Positions 4,802-18,535 of a DNA stretch of 32,000 bases are shown in pieces (position 1 is the first letter of the stretch; each line of letters begins with the position of its first letter). Source of the DNA: Patescibacteria group bacterium (lineage in GTDB: Bacteria; Patescibacteriota; UBA1384; XYA2-FULL-43-10); NCBI GenBank assembly GCA_041674405.1, contig JBAYVT010000001.1, positions 60,001 to 92,000 of the forward strand, given 5' to 3'. The position numbers and the translations under genes were made by a program. Under the pieces are notes generated by a model. It searched no databases, had not been told where the DNA came from, and saw nothing but the letters and a program-made list of their open reading frames with translations.

Positions 4802-5628
4802 TATTTCCTCTTCTTGACGATTAATAAAGCTGACTTTTTATTTCTCTTTCGAGTCTTGTGGCCGAGCGCCGGCATACCCCAAGGCGTTTTCGGATACTTA
4901 AGACCGATTGAGGTTCCACCCTCACCACCACCATGCGGGTGATCGCAAGGATTCTTCGCTTTACCTCTAACGTGTGGTTTTCTGCCAGAAAGGCGAACTC
5001 GGCCAGCTTTACCAATGGTGATATTGCTGTGATCCGAGCAGGAAACCGCACCTATTGAAGCAAAACACTCAACACTAGTTTTTCGAATTTCACCAGAAGA
5101 CATGCGGAGCTGGGCAAAATCCTTGTCAATGCCAAGAAGAATGCAGTATGCGCCGGCAGATCGAACCATCTGCCCGCCGCGTCCAGGAACCATTTCAACA
5201 TTGTAAATCTGAGTTGATGCCGGGATATTTTTGATTTTCATCCTGTTTCCGGTACGAATTGCAGCTTTTTCGGAAGCAACAATGCTTGCGCCTTCCTTTA
5301 ATCCCTCTGGAGCAAGGATATAAGACTTTTCGCCGTTTTCATATTCAATAAGGGCGATGTTGGCGGTTCTATTTGGATCGTATTCGATTGCAATAACTTT
5401 TGCTTTTTCATCAAGTTTTTCTGTTTGTTTGAAATCAACAAATCTAAATAGTTTTTTGAATCCGCCCCCACGGTTTCGGGCTGTCATTCTGCCAGAATTA
5501 TTTCTGCCGGCAGTATTTTTCCCACCAAAAGTAAGGCTTTTTTCTGGAGCTTTTTTGGAGACGCCTGAAACCAAGACGCTCATTTGGCGCCTGGCATTGC
5601 TTGTGGATTTTATAACTTTGATTGGCAT
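4801..5628 (-). CDS. rplB: 50S ribosomal protein L2
   Basis: 275 aa; conserved GGGEG and HPHGGGEG-type motif ([12 protein letters not shown]). Confidence 0.96.
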
Positions 5629-7564: not shown

Positions 7565-7891
7565 CTACATTTTGATCTCAATGTCAACGCCAGCAGGAAG
7601 ATCGAGGGACATCAAGTTGTCGATCGTCTTTCCGGATGGATTCAAGACGTCGATAAGCCTTTTGTGGACTTTCATCTCAAATTGCTCGCGGGAATCCTTG
7701 TGAACGTGCGGGGATTTGATAACGGTAACCTTGGAAACTTCGGTTGGAAGCGGTACCGGCCCACAGACGCTTGCGCCTGATCTGACAACTGTTTCGATAA
7801 TCAGCCTTGCGGATTTATCGATAATCCTGTTGTCGTAAGCCTTGAGCTTAATTCTGATCTTTTGTTTTACTTCTTTTGCTTGGGTTGGCAT
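7565..7891 (-). CDS. rpsJ: 30S ribosomal protein S10
   Basis: 108 aa; [10 protein letters not shown] is the S10 signature; AAGGA SD. Confidence 0.96.
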
Positions 7892-9178: not shown

Positions 9179-9282
9179 GAGGCAAGCTCTCGCTAATTTC
9201 AAATATCAAATTTCTAATTTCAAACAAAATTTTTTAATGTTCAAAATTTGATATTTTATTTGTAATTCGTCATTCGGATTTT

Positions 9283-9356
9283 GACATTTTGTTTGTCATT
9301 TTACATTTGTAATTTGACATTTCAATTGTCATTTGTCATTTGTAATTTGACATTTA
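9283..9356. repeat. 33-bp tandem repeat, ~2.2 copies plus a degenerate copy upstream
   Basis: Unit 9283-9315 versus unit 9316-9348 match at 28 of 33 positions by hand alignment. A third partial unit overlaps the fusA stop. G(A/T)CATT submotifs recur with spacing 14-12-7. Confidence 0.8.
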
Positions 9357-11426
9357 CTTGGCTTTTCCCTCAATAATCTGCTGTGCAACATGCGGCGGAA
9401 CTTCGGCATATTTCTCAAATTCCATCGTGTTTGAAGCTCTACCCTGTGTCATCGAGCGAAGCGAAGTGGTATAGCCGAACATCGAGCCAAGTGGCACAAG
9501 CGCATGGACAAATTTGACGCTGCCCTTATCCCCCATCTCAAGAATCTGGCCGCGCTTCGAATTAAGGTCGCCCATAACATCGCCCATAAAATCTTCCGGG
9601 GTAAGGACTTCAACCTTCATGATAGGCTCGAGGATCACAGGATCAGCCTTCTTGAAACCATCCTGGAACGCCATCGAACCGGCAATCTTAAAGGCCATCT
9701 CAGACGAGTCAACTTCGTGGAATGAACCATCAAAAAGGTCGACTGCGACGTCAACAACCGGGTATCCGGCGATCACACCCTTACTCATTGCCTCTTCGAT
9801 ACCTTCATTGATCGGATTGATGAATTCACGAGGAATAGCGCCGCCAACGATGTTATTGATAAACTCATAACCTTTGCCGGCTTCCTGTGGAATAACCTTG
9901 ATAACAACATGTCCGTATTGGCCGCGCCCACCGGTCTGGCGGATATATTTGCCTTCTTGGGTGACTTCTTTGCGGCAAGTTTCGCGGTAAGCAACCTGCG
10001 GCTGGCCGACGTTGGCCTCTACCTTAAATTCACGTTTCATGCGGTCAACAAGGATCTCAAGGTGAAGCTCGCCCATACCGGCGATGATAGTCTGGCCGGT
10101 TTCCTGATTGGATGAGACGCGGAAAGTCGGATCTTCTTCAGCCAAACGCGCGAGTGCGATGCCCATTTTCTCTTGGTCAGCCTTGGTTTTCGGCTCGATA
10201 GCCACTTCGATAACAGGCTCCGGGAAAGTGATCTTCTCAAGAATCACCGGCTTTTCCATATCGCAAAGAGTTTCACCAGTTGTGGTGTTTGATAAACCGA
10301 CAGCGGCAGCGATTTCACCGGCATAGACCTCATCTACCTCTTCGCGGTGATTGGCATGTAAGCGGACGATTCGGCCGATGCGCTCTTTGCTACCAGTAGA
10401 TGAATTTAAAATGTATGAACCCTTCTTAAGGACGCCGCGGTAAACACGGAAAAAGATCAATTTGCCAACGAACGGATCAGCAGCAACTTTAAATGCTAGT
10501 GCCGCAAATGGCTCGTTATCATCGGCTTTGATCTCGATTTCCTCACCGGATTTCGGCTCGATTGCCTTGGCTGGCGGAACATCAAGAGGGGAGGGTAGGT
10601 AATCAACGATAGCATCCAAAAGTGAGATTACGATACAACCACGGCCATCGCCACCAAGAACCGGGTAAAAAGTACCGGTCAGAGTCGCTTTGCGAATTAG
10701 ATTGATAAGCTCGGACTCGGAAATTTCCTCGCCGTTCAAATATTTCTCCATCATCGCATCATCAAATTCGACAACTTTCTCGATAAGCTCTTGGCGATAC
10801 TTTTCAGCCTTCTCTTTGAGATCGGCTGGAACTTCGCCGGGTGTTAGCTCTTTATCATGATATTCCTTGTATGTGTAGCCCTTCATGCGGACCAAATCGA
10901 TAACGCCGTTAATAGACTGCTCAAAACCGATCGGGATCTGAATCGGGAAACAATTCGGCGAAAGACGTTCGCGCATCGAGTCAAGCGAGCGGTAGAAATC
11001 ACCGCCTGTCTGATTGATCTTATTGATAAAGCACATTCGAGGAACAGTATATTTATCAGCCTGACGCCATACAGTCTCGGACTGCGGCTCGACTCCCATT
11101 TTGCCATCGAAAATTACGACTGCCCCGTCAAGAACACGCAAAGAGCGCTCTACCTCTACGGTAAAGTCCACGTGGCCCGGAGTATCGATGATATTGATTC
11201 GATTGTTCTTCCAAAAAGCGGTGGTAGCGGCGGATGTAATAGTAATGCCGCGCTCACGCTCCTGCTCCATCCAGTCCATGGTAGCTTCACCTTCGTGAAC
11301 TTCGCCGATTTTGTGAGTTCGACCCGTGGTGTACAAAATACCCTCTGTAACAGTGGTTTTTCCGGCGTCGATGTGAGCAATAGTGCCAAAGTTTCTAACT
11401 TTTTCTAGTGGATAATCTCGTCCCAT
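9354..11426 (-). CDS. fusA: Elongation factor G
   Basis: 690 aa; [14 protein letters not shown] and NKID-like (INKIN) motifs; GGAGA SD. Confidence 0.98.
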
Positions 11427-11559: not shown

Positions 11560-11620
11560 ACTCTCATGGTCATAGTCGGCAATGTCTAAAATTCAAAAAA
11601 ACCAGCAAATAACAAAATAA

Positions 11621-12358
11621 TTAGACTTTGATATTGCCTTCATGGTTTAGTTCTTTTTCAAATTCGGATTTCAAAAATAGTAGTTGACTAAACGAATCCT
11701 GGTCTTCTTTCAAAAGATTTTGAATTACGTTTGTAATCGTCTGATTACCATACACCCTTGGGAAAAGAATCTTGAAGTGACTATAATATAGATTAAAATC
11801 TATTAAGTTTTCCCGAAGCTCCGCTCCGGAAATTTCAAAAAAAGACAAAACATTGTCAAGTGGCGTAAAATTTTTTTCATGTTCAAGACTTGTTCTCCCG
11901 TAAATTATAATATTTTTTAGCTCTTCACTAGAAAGATTCGCTTGTTCAATTTTTTTAGCATACTCGGGGTTCGTCGCTGTTATCAAATCAACTTTAACAT
12001 TATTATTAAAGTCCTTAATCAAGACGAGAGTATTTGACAATCTACTGTTCCTTTCATCCCGGTCTAGTAGTTTTCTCTCGTGCTGTAGCTGTTTCTGCTG
12101 AATTTGTTTAAGCCAATATGTTTCTTTTGTGTACTGCAGAATAGCGATAAAAGTTAGAAACAAAATTTGGGCAGAGATATAGTCTGTCAAACTAACATTG
12201 CCCATCGCAAAACAATATATAAGTAGCCCTGACCCAATAATAAATAGTAAAAAATTCATCGAATCAAAAAAGTCTAATAAAAAATATTTCTTCCACCACT
12301 TCTTAATTTCACGAAATTTTTTGTTGATTCTGGTCAACTGCTCATTAGTGTTTTGCAT
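11621..12358 (-). CDS. Hypothetical membrane protein: 2 N-terminal TM helices, coiled-coil-like Q/K/E stretch, ~140-aa soluble C-terminal domain
   Basis: 245 aa. Hydrophobic segments are FLLFIIGSGLLIYCFAMG and ISAQILFLTFIAILQY, followed by WLKQIQQKQLQHERKLL. I recognise no family confidently. Confidence 0.6.
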   Translation of the reverse strand: MQNTNEQLTRINKKFREIKKWWKKYFLLDFFDSMNFLLFIIGSGLLIYCFAMGNVSLTDYISAQILFLTFIAILQYTKETYWLKQIQQKQLQHERKLLDRDERNSRLSNTLVLIKDFNNNVKVDLITATNPEYAKKIEQANLSSEELKNIIIYGRTSLEHEKNFTPLDNVLSFFEISGAELRENLIDFNLYYSHFKILFPRVYGNQTITNVIQNLLKEDQDSFSQLLFLKSEFEKELNHEGNIKV

Positions 12359-12436
12359 AAGTACTTTGTCCCAAATATTCTATAATAAATCTTAGTAAGA
12401 TAAACTTGTCCTAAGTCTGATTTTTCGACGATAGCT

Positions 12437-12799
12437 CTACCGGATCAGTTCGTGTTTGAAATATTTTTCTTGGAACTCTACGGCTTTTTCGATTTCTTCG
12501 TCGAAATAGTCCCCGTCGTTGGCGGCACCAACCAATTTGTCTTCATTGTCATCTGTGCGGTGGATAATAGCGATGATTTTCACCTGTACTGATTCAACCG
12601 GCTTGTCTTCACCAAGAACAAAGACATCAATATCGTCGCCGTCGCCGGCTTTTATCCCTTCGATATAGCCATAATTAATCGGGTAAATGTGGTCGGGGTA
12701 TTTAGGATGAGCCGAGCCGAGCGGCCGATCTATTGTGACATTGTACTCTCTACCTAAAAATTTTTTATAATCCATTGAATCCCACCTAAATTCTGTCAT
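12437..12799 (-). CDS. Short inorganic pyrophosphatase-like protein
   Basis: DRPLGSAHPKYP...YGYIEG...DGDDIDVFVLG...DDNEDKLVGA resembles the family I PPase acidic core. I chose ATG 12799-12797, which forms an ATGA overlap with the CYTH stop. Confidence 0.65.
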   Translation of the reverse strand: MTEFRWDSMDYKKFLGREYNVTIDRPLGSAHPKYPDHIYPINYGYIEGIKAGDGDDIDVFVLGEDKPVESVQVKIIAIIHRTDDNEDKLVGAANDGDYFDEEIEKAVEFQEKYFKHELIR

Positions 12800-13305
12800 T
12801 TGTTTATAAGACGTTCTCGGATCATATCGGGATAGCCGCATTTATCGAGGCGATCGGATTTTTTGAAGCCAAATAGCTTTTCAATCTTCTCAACCTCTGA
12901 AATACTTGGTGATTCAATTTCTATAAAGTTGCCGAGATCTACTACTTCGTCAATCACGATTTCCGAATCACCATAGATATAAACTCTGCGCTTTTTATCC
13001 ACAACGACATCTATATCATGGCCGATTTTTTGTAATATTTCTTTTGCCATTTTGGCATCATCAATAGACATTTCCCATTCATCGGTCCGAGCATATGACG
13101 GAACGAAGTGATAAGCGAGTTCCTTTTTGTCTCCTTTTTCCCTGACTCTAAGATATTTGCGTCCCTCGGCGTTGTCCGGAACGAGAAAATACGTGTCGAT
13201 GCAGCGAAACTCTTTGACATATTTTGCGTCTATTTGATCCAACTTTTTGATAACTGCATCAGGATCGTCAATTTTGTACTTTAGTTCAATTTCAACATTT
13301 GGCAT
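12796..13305 (-). CDS. CYTH-domain protein (CyaB-like class IV adenylyl cyclase / triphosphate tunnel metalloenzyme family)
   Basis: 169 aa. N-terminal EIELKY (ExExK signature), YLRVRE, and IDEVVDLGNFIEIE C-terminal pattern typical of CyaB-like CYTH proteins. Confidence 0.75.
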   Translation of the reverse strand: MPNVEIELKYKIDDPDAVIKKLDQIDAKYVKEFRCIDTYFLVPDNAEGRKYLRVREKGDKKELAYHFVPSYARTDEWEMSIDDAKMAKEILQKIGHDIDVVVDKKRRVYIYGDSEIVIDEVVDLGNFIEIESPSISEVEKIEKLFGFKKSDRLDKCGYPDMIRERLINK

Positions 13306-13909
13306 GGGATTTTATATCTCCAATTAATTCTGGAAATTCATCTTGATTGAAGTGCCCGCGGTCTTCGAAGACCTGGGATTTGGCACTTGGCAGCTGCTTT
13401 TCAAATACCGCAAGCTCCGAATACGGCACTATCGGGTCGTCTTTGCTTTGATACAAGAAGATATTTTTCGCCTGTTTTTCGATATTGGAAAGCGAGTCTG
13501 GAAGCCTGAAATCTTCACAATCTGCAGTGTTATTATGCGGTGGAGCTACCAGATGAAGTGATTTGATCTTCTTCGGAAAGTCATTCTCAGCCAGGTATTT
13601 GGCGAGGAACATGCCGCCAAGAGAGTGGCCTATTAGAACCACGTCGTCGTTTAGGAACGGAAACATGCGCTCAAACCAGATTTTCCACTCCTTATATTTC
13701 GCATCATATTTGTTTGGCATTTGGGGGTTGAAAACCTCAAAATCATCGCCGAGTACGGACTGAAGTGAAATTTTCCAGTCATACCTGGTTTTAAACTTCT
13801 CTGGTCTTACTTCCCAGGTTTTTAGCGAGTTCAGATAGTCTTCGTACGTTTTGAACGAATCCCCGCCATGCATCACAACCACTTGTTTCTTTGCCATTAT
13901 TGAGTCCAC
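13292..13909 (-). CDS. Alpha/beta serine hydrolase (YdeN/RBBP9-like)
   Basis: GHSLGG nucleophile elbow, later SKDDPIV and DRGHF. The track start at 13909 is GTG; ATG at 13897 (MAKKQVVVMHGG) is an alternative. Confidence 0.7.
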   Translation of the reverse strand: MDSIMAKKQVVVMHGGDSFKTYEDYLNSLKTWEVRPEKFKTRYDWKISLQSVLGDDFEVFNPQMPNKYDAKYKEWKIWFERMFPFLNDDVVLIGHSLGGMFLAKYLAENDFPKKIKSLHLVAPPHNNTADCEDFRLPDSLSNIEKQAKNIFLYQSKDDPIVPYSELAVFEKQLPSAKSQVFEDRGHFNQDEFPELIGDIKSHAKC

Positions 13910-13968
13910 AATTAATTATTTCTACCTTAACACTACGCTCTGGTATGATGTTTTTCAAGCTTTGGTGA

Positions 13969-14226
13969 TCAATATTCCAATTTATATCTCCCGTTTATCA
14001 AGAAGTAGGCTGGGAGATTGTTTTTATCTTCGGCAAGGATTCCGAGGACGTTTTTGCAGTCGCATTGCAGAAAATCGGGAGGGGGCGAACTTAGATATTT
14101 ATTTGGCGCTAATATATTCGACACATGGCAAAAGTGATTTTTGCACTCCCCTACCTTACTCATCTCGAGAACAACCTTGCCGCAGTCACTGCAGACTACT
14201 TTGACTGAACCTGTCCCTCCATCCAT
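13969..14226 (-). CDS. Small Cys-rich (zinc-ribbon-like) protein ZnA, 85 aa
   Basis: I chose ATG 14226 because GGAAGGAG lies 4 nt upstream; the track start at 14250 is TTG. Motifs: VVCSDCG...CKNHFCH...CDCKNVLGILAED. Confidence 0.6.
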   Translation of the reverse strand: MDGGTGSVKVVCSDCGKVVLEMSKVGECKNHFCHVSNILAPNKYLSSPPPDFLQCDCKNVLGILAEDKNNLPAYFLINGRYKLEY

Positions 14227-14248
14227 CGCACTCCTTCCAAAAATTAGC

Positions 14249-14420
14249 AAAATAAAAAGGGTCTCCCGCTGGCGGCACCCTTGCGGGTGCCCTACAACCT
14301 TTCGGCCGTAGACACATCAGCATACCAGACAGAAGACCGTCTTTATTGCTGATGTGTATTTTTTGCCATGCCCTTGCGGGTTTAGGCAATTGCTGTGTTA
14401 TCGACAGCATCAATATTTTA
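14249..14420 (-). promoter_or_regulatory. Structured 5' leader of ZnA with GNRA hairpins and a terminator/antiterminator-like 3' end (unclassified)
   Basis: Minus sense: UUGCC..CCC-GCAA-GGG..GGCAA; an 11-bp stem ACACAUCAGCA/UGCUGAUGUGU; CUACGGCC-GAAA-GGUUGUAG; GGCACCC-GCAA-GGGUGCC (14291-14274). The 3' arm of that last hairpin is shared with GGGU..CCG-CCAG-CGG..ACCC followed by UUUUUAUUUU (14280-14249). A weak possible promoter is TTGGAT-17-TTTAAT (14466-14438). Confidence 0.45.
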
Positions 14421-14506
14421 CCCCAAATCAATGGAGAATTAAATAGCATTTAATACATCTATCCAACCCTGCAAACAACTCGCCCCGAAAACAATTCAAC
14501 AAAACC

Positions 14507-14544
14507 TATCGTCGATTTATCGACGATCGTTCATATTTCGACGA
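14507..14544. repeat. 38-bp nested-palindrome repeat R1 (putative operator)
   Basis: tatcgtcgatttatcgacgatcgttcatatttcgacga, containing the dyads tcgtcgat-tt-atcgacga and acgatcgt. Confidence 0.85.
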
Positions 14545-14573
14545 CCAAAGACAATACAAGGATATGCGGATTG

Positions 14574-14603
14574 TTGACCTAGGTGTATTTCTTAAGTTAA
14601 TAT
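14574..14603 (+). promoter_or_regulatory. Candidate promoter of the G+C-rich orphan unit
   Basis: TTGACC (14574-14579), then TTAATA after 17 nt or TAATAT after 18 nt; 30 bp downstream of R1. Confidence 0.5.
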
Positions 14604-14609
14604 TGCTGC

Positions 14610-14921
14610 AAGTTGCCTAAACCACTGCACTGGAGCTGAGAATCATGCCAAAACATCCTCGAGGCAAAAGAGGTGGCCGAAGCAATCCCGGAAAGGGCAG
14701 CAAGTCCTCGATGGAAAAGCGCTGTGGATTGCCGGCACATCCCCTCCCGCAAGCGATTGACCATTCGGGAACGCTCGGCCCAGACATGGGATGGCTAGAC
14801 CACGAAGCACCCGGAGTAGACTTTCTGAGCCTACCTCCAACCACTCGCGACCACGGGCAATAGCCCAATCCTCGCAGAACCAAGAAAGGCGCCGGCAAAA
14901 GTCGGGGCCTTCTTGTTTTTT
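14610..14921 (+). ncRNA. Orphan G+C-rich transcription unit: candidate ~310-nt ncRNA (alternatively a 72-aa basic protein, 14645-14863)
   Basis: Bounded by the promoter above and an intrinsic terminator (stem 14884-14912 with AAAA loop, then UUGUUUUUU). In the 72-codon ORF, 39 of 72 third positions are G/C by hand count, i.e. no GC3 enrichment. The first 60 codons of the neighbouring G+C-rich MTase give 44 of 60. Confidence 0.35.
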
Positions 14922-14933
14922 AATTAAAAATTC

Positions 14934-15173
14934 TTAGCAATGGCCTTTGTGATAGACTTTGCCTTGAATTATTTTGTTCGCTTTCCTTGTGTGATATGTT
15001 GCCTCACGAGCAAAAAGCCCGCCACATTTGGGACACTTTAAGTCACCATTCGTATAATCTTCGATAATCCGATCTTTATAACATTTTACGAGATGGCCGG
15101 GCTTATCTTTTTGATAGTAATAAAGCTCGGCATTGCAATTTGCGCAGTAGATTTTGATTTTATATATCTTCAT
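14934..15173 (-). CDS. Small Cys-rich (zinc-ribbon-like) protein ZnB, 79 aa, apparent paralog of ZnA
   Basis: IYCANCN...VKC...KCPKCGGLFAREA, with the same knuckle order and G-hydrophobic-hydrophobic-A-acidic motif as ZnA. Confidence 0.6.
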   Translation of the reverse strand: MKIYKIKIYCANCNAELYYYQKDKPGHLVKCYKDRIIEDYTNGDLKCPKCGGLFAREATYHTRKANKIIQGKVYHKGHC

Positions 15174-15187
15174 TATTTTGAATTCCG

Positions 15188-15814
15188 TTATCGTCGATTT
15201 ATCGACGATCGTTTATATTTCGACGATTGGATTTTATCATTAACGGATTCTCGCTCTACTGGTTTGTGACCGGGATTTTTGGATAGAATTTTTGCGATGT
15301 AATTTTCGATATTTGACGATTCAACTACAAAGTAAGCCACATATTCCTCAACTCGATATTCTTTGGACAGCATTTCCACCATATCACCGATATTCCGATC
15401 GCAGACCCAGAGACTTTTCTGAATTTGCCGAAAGCCCATTTGTTTTATCGATCTTCGAAATGCATTTCTTTGTCTTTTTTTAGTCTCTGGAATATCGAAC
15501 GAAACGAGCCGGCGTTTATGGTCTTTCTGGTCCAATACTAATTTGTCGATCATTTTAATCTTTGCTTTATTAGTAAATTTCACCGAATCGCCATTATCAA
15601 TCTCAACATAATTATTTCTCTTAAGGCTATAAATCACGCTCGAAATCTGCCGCCTCGAAATACCGGAAGCACCAAAGCGAACATTAAAATAATCAAGCAT
15701 TTCTGTTTGTTTCATTGATCGTTGATGCTTTTTTACAAATTCAATGATCAAATTTAACGCAGTTTCAATGCATCCTTTCATTAATATCTGCGAATTTCTA
15801 GGCGTCATATACAT
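15188..15814 (-). CDS. PaaX-family-like regulator: N-terminal winged-helix plus Cas2-like ferredoxin-fold domain
   Basis: 208 aa. The wHTH-like segment is ISRRQISSVIYSLKRNNYVE. RLVSFDIPETKKRQRNAFRRSIKQMGFRQIQKSLWVC...YVAYFVVES matches the beta-alpha-beta pattern of Cas2/PaaX central domains. Confidence 0.65.
   Translation of the reverse strand: MYMTPRNSQILMKGCIETALNLIIEFVKKHQRSMKQTEMLDYFNVRFGASGISRRQISSVIYSLKRNNYVEIDNGDSVKFTNKAKIKMIDKLVLDQKDHKRRLVSFDIPETKKRQRNAFRRSIKQMGFRQIQKSLWVCDRNIGDMVEMLSKEYRVEEYVAYFVVESSNIENYIAKILSKNPGHKPVERESVNDKIQSSKYKRSSINRR
15189..15226. repeat. 38-bp repeat R2
   Basis: Identical to R1 except one C>T (37/38). It lies 15 nt upstream of the ZnB ATG and encodes the last ~12 codons of the regulator ORF. 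Confidence 0.85.
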
Positions 15815-15846
15815 AACTCAAGTATACTCCAAAAATCGCCAATGTA

Positions 15847-15884
15847 TGCCGTCGAATATTGAACGATCGTTCATATTTCGACGA
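15847..15884. repeat. 38-bp repeat R3 (diverged), with an inverted partial half-site at 15903-15916
   Basis: The 24-bp core gaacgatcgttcatatttcgacga matches R1 at 22 of 24 positions, and about 31 of 38 overall. It lies between the divergent regulator and methyltransferase genes. Confidence 0.75.
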
Positions 15885-16030
15885 TAACCTTAATACAATT
15901 TATCGAAGATGAACGAAATTATATAATGGATCTTTGTTGATGATTATATTTTGATCATGGACAAATTCGCGGGAATGTGCTATCGTTTATCGTTGTCTGC
16001 ACACCACACACTGAAGGAGGAAGAAGACAG

Positions 16031-16819
16031 ATGAACAAGACCGCCCAAAGACTTTCGAAGAGGTGGCCGCCCTTTCTCCACAAAGTTGTGGAGGCGCCGT
16101 ATGAATCGGCGGACGTGATCTTGCGCATGCTCCGATACAATCCAGAGAAGGCGATGGCAAAGTATCCCCGGCTTCGTGAGATCAAGGACGCATCGGAGAT
16201 CAGCCGGGTCTTTGCGCGCTATGGCCCCCATGGCATCTTCACGGTATCGGACAAGGAGCTGCCGAGGGTGATGGCAGCAGTCGGTGACAACTATGGGGTG
16301 CTCATGACCGTCGAGGACCACGCCTGGATCATGGACAACCTCCTGGAGCAGCTCAGGAGTCCCGCGTCGTTTCTCGATGTGGGATGCGGAGTTTGTCCCT
16401 ACACCGCTTTCCTGGTCCGTGAGGGATACCTTCGCGGCCAGGTGGTGGGAGTCGACCAGATGCCCGAAATACTTGGCCGCGCAAGAGAAGTCTTCGAGCG
16501 CGCACAGGCATCTCACCCACTGGTCCTCGGGACTGCGCTCCGGCTTCCGTTTGCAGATGCGTCCTTCGAACACGTGTTCTGCAACGATGCCCTGCACTGG
16601 ATCAAGGGGTGGAGACGCGCACTCAACGAGATGTGCCGCGTGCTTGCACCAGGCGGACGGCTGTTTGTCTGCTACTCGGTGAAGTTCACGCGAACGCTGA
16701 TCACCGAGCGCGGCATCATCGAGGAGCTGGCCAAGCACGGGATCAAGCCCGCGTTCGTCTCGTTCGACGCCGTGGGCAGCCAGACGCCCCGGACGATTGT
16801 CACCGGGTGCAAAGAATAG
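16031..16819 (+). CDS. Class I SAM-dependent methyltransferase (G+C-rich)
   Basis: Motif I FLDVGCGVCPY, then LRLPFADASFEHVF and LAPGGRLFV. I chose ATG 16031 after AAGGAGG; the track start at 15977 is GTG. Confidence 0.75.
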   Translation: MNKTAQRLSKRWPPFLHKVVEAPYESADVILRMLRYNPEKAMAKYPRLREIKDASEISRVFARYGPHGIFTVSDKELPRVMAAVGDNYGVLMTVEDHAWIMDNLLEQLRSPASFLDVGCGVCPYTAFLVREGYLRGQVVGVDQMPEILGRAREVFERAQASHPLVLGTALRLPFADASFEHVFCNDALHWIKGWRRALNEMCRVLAPGGRLFVCYSVKFTRTLITERGIIEELAKHGIKPAFVSFDAVGSQTPRTIVTGCKE

Positions 16820-16868
16820 GAGGTGGAAGAGCTGAAGAGCGGACCAAGTGTCCGCTTTTGGCTTTTAA
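16818..16868 (+). terminator. Terminator-containing ~50-bp direct repeat, copy A
   Basis: ggaggtggaagagctGAAGAGCGGACcaagtGTCCGCTTTTGGCTTTTAA. The 35-bp core 16834-16868 is identical to 17970-18004; hairpin AGCGGAC/GTCCGCU followed by a U-run. Confidence 0.7.
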
Positions 16869-17017
16869 TCGCCAACTTGGCAATCATTTAATCCGTAAAG
16901 TTTCACATAGCCAAATTCGATGGCTAATAACCTTGACGAAGGAGGCTAATAATGTTATGTTGAACATCGACTTCGAACCACATACCTTTCACATACCTTC
17001 TAAGGGGGAATCGGATA

Positions 17018-17947
17018 ATGCGAGGCGTTAGCCTTCTGAAGTCGTTGGTGAGTTGGGTCGGAAGCTGGATCACGTTCATCATCGCGCTTGCGGTGATGGC
17101 CGGGTTCTGGTTCGGGTGCTACATGGCGGTGAAGACTTGGGCACCAGAGTATCTGCACTACTTCGATCTGGGCCTCTGGATCGCCGGGGGTTTGGCCGGG
17201 GTGATGCTCGTCTTCAACGAGCCGATCGTCGTTCTAGCCACTGGCGCCAGCCGAGTCAAGGAGCCGCTAGCCTTGGGCTCGGAGCGCAAGCTCTGGAACG
17301 CCGTAATGGCGGTAAGCGGCAGTATGATGATCAAGCCGCGCGTCTATCTGCTTCCAGACTTAGGCATGAACGCCATCAGCTTCGGCTGGGGAATCCCGTT
17401 CATGTCGGCCGTTGGAGCAACGCAAGGCGCCGTACACAGTCTAAGCGACGAAGAGCTGCAGGCCGTGATGGCACACGAGGTCGGGCACATCCTCAACAAG
17501 GACATCCTGATTTCTACCGCGATGGCCGCATCGGTCATGGTTATGGCCTTGACCGGCTGGCTTCTTATGCGGGTCGCCCCATGGACTGGCGGTAGGCGAA
17601 GCTCCTCATCAGAAAGCTCTAGCGGAGGGATCGCGATCCTGGTCTTCCTGGTCGTGGGTGGCGTGATGTACATTTTCGGCCGCCTACTGGGTAGCGTTCT
17701 GCAGGCGTTTGTCTCGCGACAGCGAGAGTATGTTGCGGATACTACCTCGGCCCGGATCATGGGATCGGGGGAGCCTCTGATCAGCGCCTTGCGCAAAGTC
17801 ACCGGTTACCCCTCGATTGGGTCTGATGTTGCGGCAGCCGCCGTAGGGTTCCTTTGCACTGCAGACCCCAATCCCGAGGACATGATGGCGACGCACCCGT
17901 CGCTGTCGGACAGGATTTACCACCTGAAAGACCTGTCTGGGGAGTAA
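17018..17947 (+). CDS. M48-family (HtpX-like) membrane zinc metallopeptidase (G+C-rich)
   Basis: 309 aa. HEVGHILNKD (HExxH), downstream EYVAD, and several hydrophobic helices. GGGGGA SD 7 nt upstream. Confidence 0.8.
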   Translation: MRGVSLLKSLVSWVGSWITFIIALAVMAGFWFGCYMAVKTWAPEYLHYFDLGLWIAGGLAGVMLVFNEPIVVLATGASRVKEPLALGSERKLWNAVMAVSGSMMIKPRVYLLPDLGMNAISFGWGIPFMSAVGATQGAVHSLSDEELQAVMAHEVGHILNKDILISTAMAASVMVMALTGWLLMRVAPWTGGRRSSSSESSSGGIAILVFLVVGGVMYIFGRLLGSVLQAFVSRQREYVADTTSARIMGSGEPLISALRKVTGYPSIGSDVAAAAVGFLCTADPNPEDMMATHPSLSDRIYHLKDLSGE

Positions 17948-17955
17948 ATGAGAGT

Positions 17956-18004
17956 GGAGGTGGAGAGCCGAAGAGCGGACCAAGTGTCCGCTTTTGGCTT
18001 TTAA
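17956..18004 (+). terminator. Terminator-containing direct repeat, copy B
   Basis: ggaggtggagagccGAAGAGCGGACcaagtGTCCGCTTTTGGCTTTTAA, with the same 35-bp core as copy A. Confidence 0.7.
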
Positions 18005-18006
18005 AT

Positions 18007-18041
18007 AAAGAAAAAAGAGCCTTCAAGGTTCTTTTTTCTTT
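18007..18041. terminator. A/U-rich 15-bp hairpin, candidate bidirectional terminator at the rpsG / island junction
   Basis: aaagaaaaaaga-gcc-ttcaa-ggt-tcttttttcttt. The 12 outer pairs are perfect, and there is a U-tract on either strand. Confidence 0.6.
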
Positions 18042-18058
18042 ATGAGTTTCGATTTTAT

Positions 18059-18535
18059 TTAGAATCTTGCGAAGTGGGCAAACGCCTTGTTGGCTTCCGC
18101 CATCTTATGAGTTTCTTCGCGTTTTTTCACGGCTGCGCCTTCATTCTTGCAGGCCTGAATTATTTCATCTGAAAGTTTGAGTGCAAGTTTTTGGCCCTTT
18201 TTCTTATTGGCAGCGGCTAGAATCCAGCGCATGGCAAGTGTATTTTTGCGGTCTTTGTTGACCTCGACTGGCACCTGATAGTTGGCACCGCCGATTCGCT
18301 TTCCCTTAACCTCTACAATCGGACCGACGTTTTTGATCATCAGATCGAATACTTCCATCGGCTCAGACTTAAGCTCGACAGAAGCGGTATCAAATGCTTC
18401 GTAGACGATTCGCTCAGCAACAGTTTTCTTGCCATTTAGCATGACGTAATTGATGAATTTTGACATCAAAATGCTGCCGTATTTTGCATCGGGCTGTATT
18501 GGCTGCTTCTTAGCTTTTGTATTTCCTCGTGACAT
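18059..18535 (-). CDS. rpsG: 30S ribosomal protein S7
   Basis: 158 aa; PDAKYGS...KFIN and NKAFAHFRF-type (ANKAFAHFARF) C-terminus. Confidence 0.96.
   Translation of the reverse strand: MSRGNTKAKKQPIQPDAKYGSILMSKFINYVMLNGKKTVAERIVYEAFDTASVELKSEPMEVFDLMIKNVGPIVEVKGKRIGGANYQVPVEVNKDRKNTLAMRWILAAANKKKGQKLALKLSDEIIQACKNEGAAVKKREETHKMAEANKAFAHFARF

Follow-up and report, generated by a model that had tools for sequence, protein, structure and literature searches.

In E. coli, the repressor PaaX recognises TGATTC(N27)GAATCA and silences its own promoter, Px, by sterically hindering RNA polymerase (PMC9493321). The small regulator described here, mini-PaaX, shares with the PaaX proteins of E. coli and Pseudomonas (PDB 8a39, 3l09) an N-terminal winged helix followed by a Cas2-like central domain; however, PaaX has about 305 amino acids and carries the ligand domain PaaX_C, whereas mini-PaaX has about 180 and lacks it. 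No paa genes are found near the regulator of the window, which is the whole stretch of 32,000 nucleotides that was analysed. The putative binding sites are also comparable, with 6–7-bp arms about 24 bp apart in place of TGATTC-N27-GAATCA, a spacing that is similar but not identical. Unlike in PaaX, conservation extends to the dyad centre (CGATCG), a second candidate operator stands right after the stop codon so that the gene is bracketed, many paralogs with private arm sequences coexist in one small genome, and the promoters of about half of the family members are of the leaderless type.

Cas2 and its VapD-like relatives share with mini-PaaX the ferredoxin-like fold, the N-terminal strand motif SFDIPE and Q.Q.SLW, although mini-PaaX is fused to a winged helix. 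The window contains neither cas1 or other cas genes nor a CRISPR array, and the same generally holds for the homolog loci, where each gene has two full palindromes about 650 bp apart and not a repeat-spacer array. Repressors such as LacI (O1/O2), GalR (OE/OI), AraC and DeoR use two distant operators and DNA looping. Mini-PaaX loci similarly have a pair of apparently cognate operators separated by a few hundred bp, the first at the promoter and the other downstream, which would permit cooperative repression through a DNA loop; however, the second lies past the end of the regulator's own gene, family-wide. In RAYT/REP and IS200/IS605 systems, a small nuclease gene is flanked by cognate palindromes, and mini-PaaX likewise has its own palindrome class on both sides, which differs by paralog.

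Judging from sequence comparison, the 38-bp repeats of the window very probably serve as DNA-binding sites for the small PaaX-like regulator whose gene lies among them. The locus itself is probably that of an autoregulated two-domain PaaX-type repressor, with repeats R3 and R2 as cognate operators that bracket its own gene in the layout of a Patescibacteria-wide family. This gene-bracketing layout is conserved and undescribed, and the locus is not a new multi-gene system.

Repeats, regulator gene and promoter

The features of the locus are as follows.

13969–14226, minus strand: ZnA, 85-aa Cys-rich protein, starting 27 nt past the LOOT U-run
14250–14388, minus strand: LOOT RNA with a 3' tail outside the Rfam model (match to RF03000 at 14274–14388)
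14507–14544, no strand: R1, candidate extra third operator copy; reference copy of the 38-nt family, 37/38 identical to R2
14645–14863, plus strand: orf72, gene of a small basic G+C-rich protein, convergent with the regulator-ZnB unit; promoter-like site at 14574–14603
14934–15173, minus strand: ZnB, 79-aa all-beta zinc-binding protein with invariant C10, C13, C31, C47 and C50
15188–15814, minus strand: regulator gene (mini-PaaX), with winged helix, linker helix and Cas2-like (PaaX_M) domain, without PaaX_C
15189–15226, no strand: R2, downstream candidate operator of the regulator gene, 97% identical to R1
15821–15826, minus strand: putative -10 box TATACT, 6 nt 5' of the ATG at 15814
15847–15884, no strand: R3, upstream (promoter-side) candidate operator of the regulator gene, 82% identical to R1
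15903–15916, no strand: degenerate partial copy of the left half of R3, TCGAAGATGAACGA, read from the sequence, outside the repeat family
16031–16819, plus strand: G+C-rich class I SAM-dependent methyltransferase (MTase), divergent from the regulator; Pfam Methyltransf_11, 80 bits
16828–16868, plus strand: terminator-like hairpin, a 41-mer after the MTase gene, 98% identical to its counterpart past the M48 gene
17018–17947, plus strand: G+C-rich M48/HtpX-like membrane metalloprotease with HEVGH motif; Pfam PF01435, 82 bits
17964–18004, plus strand: second copy of the terminator-like 41-mer, after the M48 gene (repeat family D2, shared with 16828–16868)

The three 38-bp repeats claimed in an earlier, sequence-only reading of this DNA are real and non-random: with up to 3 mismatches, the 22-mer core was counted 3 times, whereas 100 shuffles gave an expectation of 0.00, and no further copy lies in this 32-kb part of the 396-kb contig. 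The right-hand 22 nt of R3 are identical to R1. The nested dyads are present as described, R3 being a near-perfect 38-bp palindrome with centre ACGATCGT and outer arms CGTCGA/TCGACG. The supposed inverted half-site at 15903–15916 contains a 1-nt deletion; it carries no weight alone and its significance is doubtful.

The non-random placement also proved to be as reported. R1 lies between the divergent orf72 promoter (plus strand) and the LOOT-ZnA unit (minus strand), 29 nt from the promoter-like site TTGACC-18-TAATAT (14574–14603), and overlaps neither promoter-like site on its flanks. R2 covers the last codons and the stop codon of the regulator ORF, and the ATG of ZnB follows 15 nt beyond its end, with no canonical promoter found in that interval. 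The regulator and MTase genes diverge from either side of R3. While R2 had rightly been seen to overlap the end of the ORF, the codons that it contributes are a non-conserved read-through extension, as homologs stop about 15–25 aa before the C-terminus of the window regulator and these terminal 15–25 codons run into R2. The MTase-regulator-ZnB junctions recur in an independent Logan assembly (L002), which rules out an assembly chimera as the source of the AT-rich/GC-rich mosaic.

The regulator matches Pfam PF20803 (PaaX_M) with 63.1 bits against a cut-off of 24. It also reaches the cut-offs of PF09827 (Cas2; 27.3 bits) and of the NCBIfam Cas2 model (26.2 bits, cut-off 24.5), and falls far under that of the PaaX equivalog model (15.5 against 264.55 bits). 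Its AlphaFold model (pLDDT 84) comprises a winged helix (residues 1–70), a linker helix and a ferredoxin-like beta-alpha-beta-beta-alpha-beta domain. In Foldseek, the top PDB match was E. coli PaaX (8a39, E=1.1e-3, probability 1.00), and Cas2 chains aligned with the C-terminal domain. The 150 homologs found, mostly of 176–190 aa, belong to a family (roughly 180–200 aa) that is common in Patescibacteria, with several copies per genome. Its alignment shows an invariant S..T.KAK linker, Q.Q.SLW and the invariant Cas2-type motif SFDIPE with its Asp; because of these Cas2-type motifs and the Cas2 cut-offs reached, NCBI and JGI label several homologs “Cas2”. With this motif conserved, an activity other than dimerisation could be conceivable.

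Since the putative -10 box ends so close to the start codon, the regulator mRNA would be leaderless or nearly so. The predicted -35 position falls at the proximal edge of R3, which only touches it, and the -35 hexamer is poor. The arrangement AGTATACTTGAG-ATG at the regulator start is also kept in the syntenic locus L003. Across the family, a -10-like hexamer 4–9 nt 5' of the ATG was found in 22 of 48 regulators, compared with 19% of 173 control gene starts. In most loci the upstream palindrome ends 8–30 nt before this hexamer and would thus cover the -35 box or the spacer.

Matching palindromes on both sides of the regulator gene

The layout palindrome-regulator-palindrome recurs around dozens of relatives from other members of the candidate phyla radiation (CPR). 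Of 51 testable homolog loci from other genomes (dozens of MAGs), 47 have the regulator gene enclosed by a matching pair of palindromes of its own, each of 36–46 bp, one overlapping or abutting the promoter and the second just 3' of the stop codon. In these 47 loci the two flanks share a match of 22–50 nt (median score 26), which exceeded all 30 control windows drawn per locus (null mean 9.2). A generic 38-nt palindrome detector returned 69 palindromes in 524 kb of related loci, 60 of them adjoining a regulator gene. In these loci the repeat thus does not behave as a generic, scattered REP/MITE-like element, and searches of the JGI metagenome and IMG/VR collections gave no match to its exact core. 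In 42 homolog loci, the centre of the upstream palindrome, the equivalent of R3, lies a median 54 nt 5' of the start codon, and that of the downstream one, the equivalent of R2, a median 39 nt 3' of the stop. The downstream palindrome occurs irrespective of the orientation of the following gene (co-directional in 25 loci, convergent in 17) and thus belongs to the regulator unit. R3 and R2 form the family-typical pair and R1 is an extra copy; it is absent from L003, and third copies are rare elsewhere (examples at L005:229 and L032:6991).

A site is a single dyad of ~38 bp built around the conserved centre ACGA|TCGT; from there, each half-site runs through a variable inner triplet and 5 bp of A/T spacer to a locus-specific outer arm of 6–7 bp, and the two arms stand about 24 bp apart. 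Among 84 sites, the central hexamer is CGATCG in 62, CGGCCG in 8, CGTACG in 6 and TACGTA in 4; positions 8–12 are nearly pure A/T and the arms at positions 13–19 are self-complementary at 82–93%. The outer arms show 81% identity between the two sites of one locus against 29% between loci, the centre 94% against 71%. Paralogs of one genome differ in their arms, among them the five of Berkelbacteria RIFOXYA2_FULL_43_10 (L018, L025, L035, L036, L040). Together with the bracketed loci and the PaaX-like geometry, these locus-private arms support the repeats as operators of the adjacent regulator.

A mobile or selfish cassette in the manner of IS200/IS605 or RAYT/REP, with the Cas2-like domain as a nuclease acting on the CGATCG centre, would also place cognate palindromes at both gene ends regardless of the neighbours, and could account for several paralogs per genome with private palindromes, for the invariant Asp at the Cas2 catalytic position and for the different gene-adjacent regions of the window and L003. 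The regulators of L008 and L012, 68% identical and with similar arms, even have unrelated flanks. However, the paralogs of one genome are 35–55% identical, and none is an identical or near-identical copy of another. Unlike in those elements, the palindromes are not dispersed, with only about 4 copies in 524 kb beyond the gene-bracketing pairs, and synteny around the gene links the window with L003 and L038 with L041, and in part also L016 with L017. Furthermore, there is no HUH motif or HUH/Tyr transposase signature, no transposase or PHROG match and no relative in IMG/VR, and the upstream copy sits operator-like over the promoter. The cassette is consequently very unlikely.

Very unlikely, too, is a reading of the palindromes as RNA hairpins (terminators, insulators or mRNA stabilisers), or as sites of another factor, with the regulator unconnected. 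Each 38-mer could fold with a stem of about 17–19 bp, the downstream copy lies directly 3' of the stop codon, and R1 and R2 scored as terminator-like in a simple scan. Yet two hairpins of one locus would have no reason to share sequence and to co-vary with the enclosed paralog, the palindromes associate with the mini-PaaX gene family only, and their arm spacing is close to that of PaaX-type operators. The upstream copy lies 5' of the predicted -10 box and hence outside the regulator transcript. Downstream copies lack a consistent U-run, and in L003 a separate canonical terminator follows the downstream palindrome, so this palindrome is not the terminator.

For the preferred reading, that of an autoregulated repressor, the most likely mechanism would be the following. 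Each dyad would be bound by a dimer or a dimer of dimers, with the variable winged helices reading the outer arms and the conserved part of the protein (S..T.KAK linker and Cas2-like core) placed over the conserved dyad centre. Occupancy of R3, abutting the -35 of the leaderless promoter, would repress the regulator's own transcription, and the site 3' of the stop codon could either cooperate with R3 through a DNA loop of about 650 bp or form a roadblock or an insulator at the gene's 3' end.

Neighbouring genes and control beyond the regulator

In the sequence-only reading, one regulator was thought to unite ZnA, ZnB, structured RNA, the SAM-MTase and the M48 protease in a single new regulon, for example for protease/methyltransferase maturation of small Cys-rich proteins. 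All these genes do lie within 4 kb with the three repeat copies interspersed, R3 occupies the divergent regulator-MTase intergenic region, R1 and R2 are each on the 5' side of a minus-strand unit, and in locus L033 an M48 gene stands directly upstream of a regulator family member. Nevertheless, the family-wide bracket explains R3 and R2 fully, whatever the neighbours. Beside 54 homologs these are heterogeneous (NUDIX, GNAT, RecO, aminoacyl-tRNA synthetases, glycosyltransferases and others), and the MTase/M48/Zn-ribbon set does not recur. The closest syntenic orthologue, L003, has the regulator and both palindromes without MTase, M48, ZnB, ZnA, LOOT or R1. Such a module is thus unlikely; of that interpretation, the repeats as cognate operators are retained and the novel regulon is not.

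The individual genes give the same picture. ZnA and ZnB, proposed as Zn-ribbon paralogs, are unrelated (BLASTP E=0.11 over 9 residues). ZnA is nearly an orphan, with only 7 hits among 1.84 billion representative proteins; the family of ZnB, with no assigned function, is widespread and highly conserved (119 homologs, 53–90% identity; ZnB model with pLDDT 90.7 and weak structural matches only), and its members stand in varied gene contexts without the mini-PaaX regulator, MTase or M48. The homolog search found no MTase orthologue outside this organism, and 74 nt separate R3 from the beginning of the MTase promoter-like site. The M48 protein matches NCBIfam HtpX models, all under their cut-offs. 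Sequence comparison marks both the MTase gene and the M48 gene as G+C-rich, lineage-specific insertions beside the regulator and not as conserved partners. The G+C-rich “orphan unit” is orf72, which has a G+C-rich homolog of 46% identity at the equal relative position in L003; a bidirectional terminator-like hairpin lies by it, at about 14886–14916. Repeats, dyads and placement thus stand from the first description, whereas the paralogs, the orphan unit and the several RNA elements do not.

ZnB is probably co-transcribed with the regulator, or just downstream of it. With R2 only 15 nt before ZnB and R1 between two units, ZnB, and possibly LOOT-ZnA and/or orf72, may have been recruited into control by the regulator. 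R1 is the only argument for any regulated target beyond the regulator itself.

LOOT RNA

LOOT RNA (RF03000) is reportedly a metagenome-derived sRNA candidate from the 2017 work of Weinberg and others. Structured RNA is indeed present in the window, as had been proposed, but the sole Rfam match is this one known family, at full length and with 76.1 bits against a gathering score of 46.4. A pattern search found no LOOT in the 54 regulator homolog loci, and it is not linked to the regulator family. In the window, the tail (14272–14260) pairs with the apex of the long hairpin (14338–14326) and is followed by a U-run (14258–14254). This long-range helix is contained in the minimum-free-energy fold and shows covariation across 42 LOOT RNAs; compared with the RF03000 model, all LOOTs examined carry this further covarying helix and a U-run past the model end.

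The repeat at both ends of the regulator gene

The 38-nt repeat proposed in the sequence-only reading was recovered at 14507-14544 (R1), 15189-15226 (R2, 97%) and 15847-15884 (R3, 82%), and the likeness of the three copies ends abruptly at their edges. R1 and R2 are identical at 37 of 38 positions, and R3, which differs from them mostly in the left inner arm and the spacer, is a near-perfect palindrome with the centre ACGATCGT. The 22-nt core occurs three times in the 32-kb window at one mismatch or fewer, against 0.00 expected, with no further occurrence, and all three copies fit inside 1.4 kb. The exact degenerate core ACGATCGTTYATATTTCGACGA gave 0 matches in the JGI metagenome contigs and in IMG/VR, from both of which the source organism is seemingly absent.

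R3 lies on the promoter side, and R2 at the stop, of the gene (15188-15814, minus strand) for the regulator, a mini-PaaX protein with a winged helix and a Cas2-like domain. The term regulator family is used here for its Patescibacteria-wide, multi-copy group of homologs, which databases often name "Cas2" or "PaaX". In the first three homologous loci examined, a 38-41-bp palindrome centred on CGATCG stands on each side of the regulator gene, with arms that differ from those in the window, and a scan of species-representative genomes added another 54, with several frequently found in one genome. The 220 nt upstream of the start and a 220-nt stretch taken around and past the stop were compared at each testable locus, along with 30 control windows. 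The match between the two flanks exceeded all 30 controls from the same locus in 47 of 51 testable loci, with a median score of 26 versus a null mean of 9.2. A sequence-agnostic detector found 69 palindromes of 38 nt in 524 kb; 9 of them do not adjoin a regulator gene, and 3 of these 9 repeat the site of their own locus. With the other 60 next to a regulator gene, and three copies in the 32 kb covered of the 396-kb source contig, the many unlinked copies of a generic dispersed REP, REPIN or MITE element, named beforehand as the alternative to an operator, were not seen.

When 84 sites were aligned on their centres, a common half-site plan emerged, consisting of T-C-G-T, three variable positions, five A/T positions and a variable arm of 6-7 bp, the whole dyad spanning about 38 bp. 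The centre is CGATCG in 62 sites, CGGCCG in 8, CGTACG in 6 and TACGTA in 4, and the self-complementarity of the outer arms amounts to 82-93%. Outer-arm identity is 81% between the two sites of one locus versus 29% between loci, and paralogs within the same genome carry differing arms. The palindrome before the regulator start (UP) and the one past its stop (DOWN) are 587-855 bp apart from centre to centre (median 652 bp), which is about the gene length. Judged by these comparisons, R3 and R2 are the predicted operator pair that is standard for the regulator family, whose operator candidates can be read straight from a genome as two matching palindromes per regulator gene.

In many loci, including L010, L020, L027, L030 and L049 from other assemblies, the UP palindrome is followed 8-30 nt on by a TATAAT-like hexamer. 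Among 48 regulators, 22 have such a hexamer with its end 4-9 nt ahead of the ATG, compared with 19% of 173 other gene starts, and AGTATACTTGAG-ATG is common to the window regulator and to that of L003, the syntenic orthologous locus. A Shine-Dalgarno-like motif was found in only 12 of the 48 regulators. The closeness of the hexamer to the ATG and the scarcity of Shine-Dalgarno-like motifs together point to leaderless regulator transcripts, with the putative UP operator on the -35 box or the spacer, where an autorepressor classically binds.

The DOWN palindrome, centred a median of 39 nt past the stop, is present with either a co-directional (25 loci) or a convergent (17 loci) next gene, at variable distance. 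As a general rule it was rejected as the operator of the next gene, given the 17 convergent neighbours and the very variable distances to the co-directional ones. It was likewise rejected as an intrinsic terminator, since no consistent U-run follows the DOWN palindromes and L003 has a separate canonical terminator beyond its own. Its indifference to the orientation and distance of the neighbour, and the inconsistent U-run, mark it as part of the regulator unit at the level of DNA.

The palindrome-gene-palindrome layout resembles that of RAYT/REP or IS200 units, and a mobile unit of this kind was considered, which would also suit L008 and L012, two loci with regulators and arms in common but not flanks. 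However, the paralogs, at 35-55% identity, are old; of six locus pairs compared, three keep their synteny (the window with L003, L038 with L041 and, partly, L016 with L017); and the palindromes are not spread through the 524 kb of related loci. Searches of Pfam and PHROG gave no match to a HUH/Tyr nuclease or transposase signature, and no relatives of the regulator were found in IMG/VR. A phage or defence origin was rejected on the same IMG/VR result, together with PADLOC, which returned Cas2 matches only, and PHROGs, which returned nothing meaningful.

The regulator between PaaX and Cas2

The protein that would bind this operator pair matches PF20803 (PaaX_M, Pfam) over residues 97-168 (63.1 bits; cut-off 24). 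Two Cas2 profiles, PF09827 (27.3 versus 23.8 bits) and TIGR01573 (26.2 versus 24.5 bits), are matched over the first ~40-48 domain residues only, the PaaX equivalog TIGR02277 fails (15.5 versus 264.55 bits), and the Pfam HTH models give only sub-threshold matches at the N-terminus. In the AlphaFold model (pLDDT 84), a winged helix made of three helices and a beta wing (residues 1-70, pLDDT about 90) leads by way of a linker helix into a ferredoxin-like domain. Foldseek with this model placed E. coli PaaX (8a39) first and other winged-helix repressors next, and Cas2 chains in the PDB match the second domain. A profile of the regulator family gave no significant match among PDB sequences, so that it is Pfam and the predicted fold that relate the family to PaaX and Cas2.

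The 150 homologs at E<=1e-5, proteins of Patescibacteria, typically measure 176-190 aa, compared with 305 aa for PaaX. Their alignment holds 23 invariant residues, all within Y58-Y150 and including SFDIPE and Q.Q.SLW, and the first ~57 residues are highly variable. The final 15-25 residues of the window regulator, encoded by R2, form an extension that is not conserved in the homologs. Pfam gave no match to PaaX_C in the regulator, in which the Cas2-like domain is followed by just about 20-45 residues.

Five homologs (P0021, P0031, P0035, P0065 and P0080) are labelled "CRISPR-associated endonuclease Cas2" by NCBI or JGI, because the partial TIGR01573 match just clears its cut-off. Cas2 of CRISPR-Cas adjoins cas1 and a CRISPR array, unlike the regulator: neither Cas1 nor a repeat-spacer array was found in the window, and cas genes are absent among the homolog neighbours. 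The naming looks like a systematic misannotation, as the examined loci have no CRISPR-Cas context.

The operator of PaaX is TGATTC(N27)GAATCA, and PaaX represses its own promoter sterically; as of a 2022 review, no structure of a PaaX-DNA complex had been reported (PMC9493321). By analogy, both the published operator and the autorepression would fit the layout of the regulator, which shares with PaaX the winged helix and the Cas2-like PaaX_M domain. The arms of the PaaX operator are N27 apart, and window-type sites have 6-7-bp outer arms about 24 bp apart. PaaX also has the phenylacetyl-CoA-sensing helical PaaX_C, which the regulator lacks, and is linked to paa catabolic genes, as the regulator family is not; no paa genes were found in the window or the homolog loci. 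The regulator would be of a known kind, an autoregulated repressor of PaaX type whose operator is a long dyad. What appears to be new, as far as sequence can tell, is the combination of a two-domain truncated protein, a conserved dyad centre, a bracketing operator pair, leaderless promoters and many paralogs of private specificity. A literature search on PaaX combined with Cas2, CPR or Patescibacteria found nothing, and neither the family nor the putative operators that bracket its genes seem to have been described before, as far as this search could show.

That these wHTH-Cas2-like proteins are more than plain repressors, namely a free-living, repeat-binding relative of Cas2 that marks both gene ends, is improbable. 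Under such a scheme, suggested by the invariant Cas2-type catalytic motif and the invariant CGATCG-type centre, the Cas2-like dimer would engage, and perhaps nick or remodel, the centre of the palindrome, and the winged helices would give locus-specific addressing. Were it true, the regulator family could serve as an insulator or be an element of the addiction type, could be one of the main transcription-factor families of Berkelbacteria-like CPR genomes, and would bear on how Cas2 came to act on palindromic repeats. To our knowledge, CPR/Patescibacteria have very few recognisable transcription factors and their regulation is almost uncharacterised. For the PaaX-type repressor that we favour, the loci provide dozens of natural candidate protein-operator pairs of differing specificity, useful for learning how PaaX-type proteins read long dyads; these pairs could also show the role of the Cas2-like domain outside CRISPR, and why an operator sits 3' of the regulator's own gene.

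Accessory genes between rpsG and fusA

The window is part of a 396-kb Patescibacteria (CPR) contig (ENA ERZ27247358, k141_1464549), and the locus sits in the otherwise conserved cluster rpoB-rpoC-rpsL-rpsG / fusA-tuf-rpsJ, between two genes that are normally neighbours in the str operon:

18059-18535, minus strand, rpsG
9354-11426, minus strand, fusA

About 6.6 kb of accessory genes (about 11600-18050) separate them, including a 245-aa ORF, a pyrophosphatase, a CYTH gene, a Ser-hydrolase, the small putative zinc proteins ZnA and ZnB, the LOOT RNA, orf72, the regulator, a methyltransferase (MTase) and an M48 protease. A different gene set occupies this gap in L003, which suggests an insertion hot spot. 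Directly upstream of fusA there is a tandem array (9245-9355) with 3.4 copies of a 33-nt unit and a sub-period of 7, TTTGTCA.

Against a background of about 40% G+C, three segments reach 55-62%: one with MTase and M48 (16.0-18.0 kb), one with orf72 (14.6-14.9 kb) and one with a PurL-like gene that follows the adjoining tRNA-Pro (30.1-32.0 kb). The mosaic is genuine, since L002, an independent Logan assembly, has the same order of MTase, regulator, ZnB, ZnA and hydrolase. No donor of the G+C-rich genes is evident. Among 5.8 billion proteins no near relative of MTase came up, and none is closer than 43% identity over its generic SAM-binding domain. The M48 protein matches PF01435 with 82.2 bits and carries the HExxH motif as HEVGH in its translation; it is HtpX-like, without reaching the cut-off of the NCBIfam HtpX equivalog (138.8 against 355). 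Copies of a 41-nt terminator-like hairpin module, 98% identical and each preceded by GGAGGTGGA, follow MTase (16828-16868) and M48 (17964-18004), as would be expected if the two 3' ends had a common origin or had been duplicated.

The L003 regulator, 65-67% identical to that of the window, holds the same position in the order rpoC-rpsL-rpsG ... regulator ... orf72-like ... Ser-hydrolase. Both palindromes are kept there, four unrelated small ORFs stand where MTase and M48 do in the window, and ZnB, LOOT, ZnA and the third repeat are all absent. By comparison with L003, the window has acquired two additions: ZnB, which lies between R2 and the terminator of orf72, and a segment of ~650 bp with R1, LOOT and ZnA, which lies between the promoter of orf72 and the gene for the hydrolase. 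R1, nearly identical to R2, stands as R2 does 5' of a unit on the minus strand, and the regulator may have extended its control to ZnB, and to LOOT-ZnA or orf72, which can be said with moderate strength because R1 overlaps no predicted promoter. The proposal of a new module of MTase, M48, Zn-ribbon proteins and RNA found no support, as L003 lacks these genes and the neighbours of the 54 homologs are heterogeneous, with no conserved partner gene. L003 also has a second palindrome pair (5447-5499 and 7822-7876; 37-50 nt, ATTTCATTTGCACATTG-N4-CAATGTGCAAATGAAAT), unrelated to the operators, which encloses a 2.4-kb block with a 140-aa gene, the regulator, the orf72-like gene and the hydrolase.

The small genes also read differently from what had been supposed. 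ZnA and ZnB, taken for paralogs, proved unrelated by direct comparison. ZnA has 7 detectable relatives in 1.84 billion representative proteins, and ZnB (14934-15173, minus strand) belongs to a family (P0135-P0253) of zinc-binding proteins of 74-85 aa and 53-90% identity from Patescibacteria, Bipolaricaulota and Bacteroidales, with neither a name nor a Pfam family. Its model (pLDDT 90.7) is all-beta and weakly like (E>0.3) the RIG-I C-terminal domain, Yippee, MsrB and cereblon-type (beta-tent-type) zinc domains. ZnB homologs occur in varied contexts without the regulator. In L248 one comes after an 89-aa ORF that matches no Pfam family, and another stands just after a small HTH gene in L254 (500-1752; 3001-3255), where, as a single case, a genuine cas4-cas1-cas2 adaptation module lies 1.2 kb upstream of it with the HTH gene between. 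The G+C-rich "orphan" is orf72, a small basic protein with a likewise G+C-rich homolog in L003. An RNA in this region was rejected, since the L003 homology is at protein level in the orf72 frame only and Rfam gave no match even at E<=1.

The LOOT RNA and its 3' tail

Of the RNA elements claimed for the locus, a LOOT RNA (RF03000; 14250-14388 with its 3' tail, minus strand) does stand upstream of ZnA, matching positions 1-121 of the 121 in the model with 76.1 bits against a gathering threshold of 46.4; the supposed link to the regulator or to ZnA-like genes was not borne out. No LOOT 5' motif was found in the 54 regulator loci, the genes downstream of 40 LOOT RNAs are mutually unrelated, and L003-L006, loci from other assemblies, gave no Rfam match. 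A pattern scan yielded about 43 further LOOT RNAs (L061-L177, L228, L236). A co-directional ORF usually begins 0-70 nt past the LOOT U-run, and the encoded proteins likewise have no relation to one another.

In all LOOT RNAs examined, 42 of which were aligned, a 13-nt 3' tail beyond the Rfam model forms a long-range helix with the tip of the long hairpin, and a U-run comes directly after this tail. The window has the two strands of the helix at 14338-14326 and 14272-14260 and the U-run at 14258-14254. Across the 42 sequences, 90.6% of the cells in this helix pair, compared with only 36-63% in slid controls, and 12 of its 13 pairs change on both sides. Its covariation is 0.52 versus 0.23 when shuffled, and 0 of 500 shuffles reach 0.52. 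The window fold that includes the tail helix, at -67.3 kcal/mol, has a rival in the plain-hairpin centroid, at -62.1 kcal/mol. The two readings of the helix are a pseudoknot and an alternative helix of the terminator-like kind.
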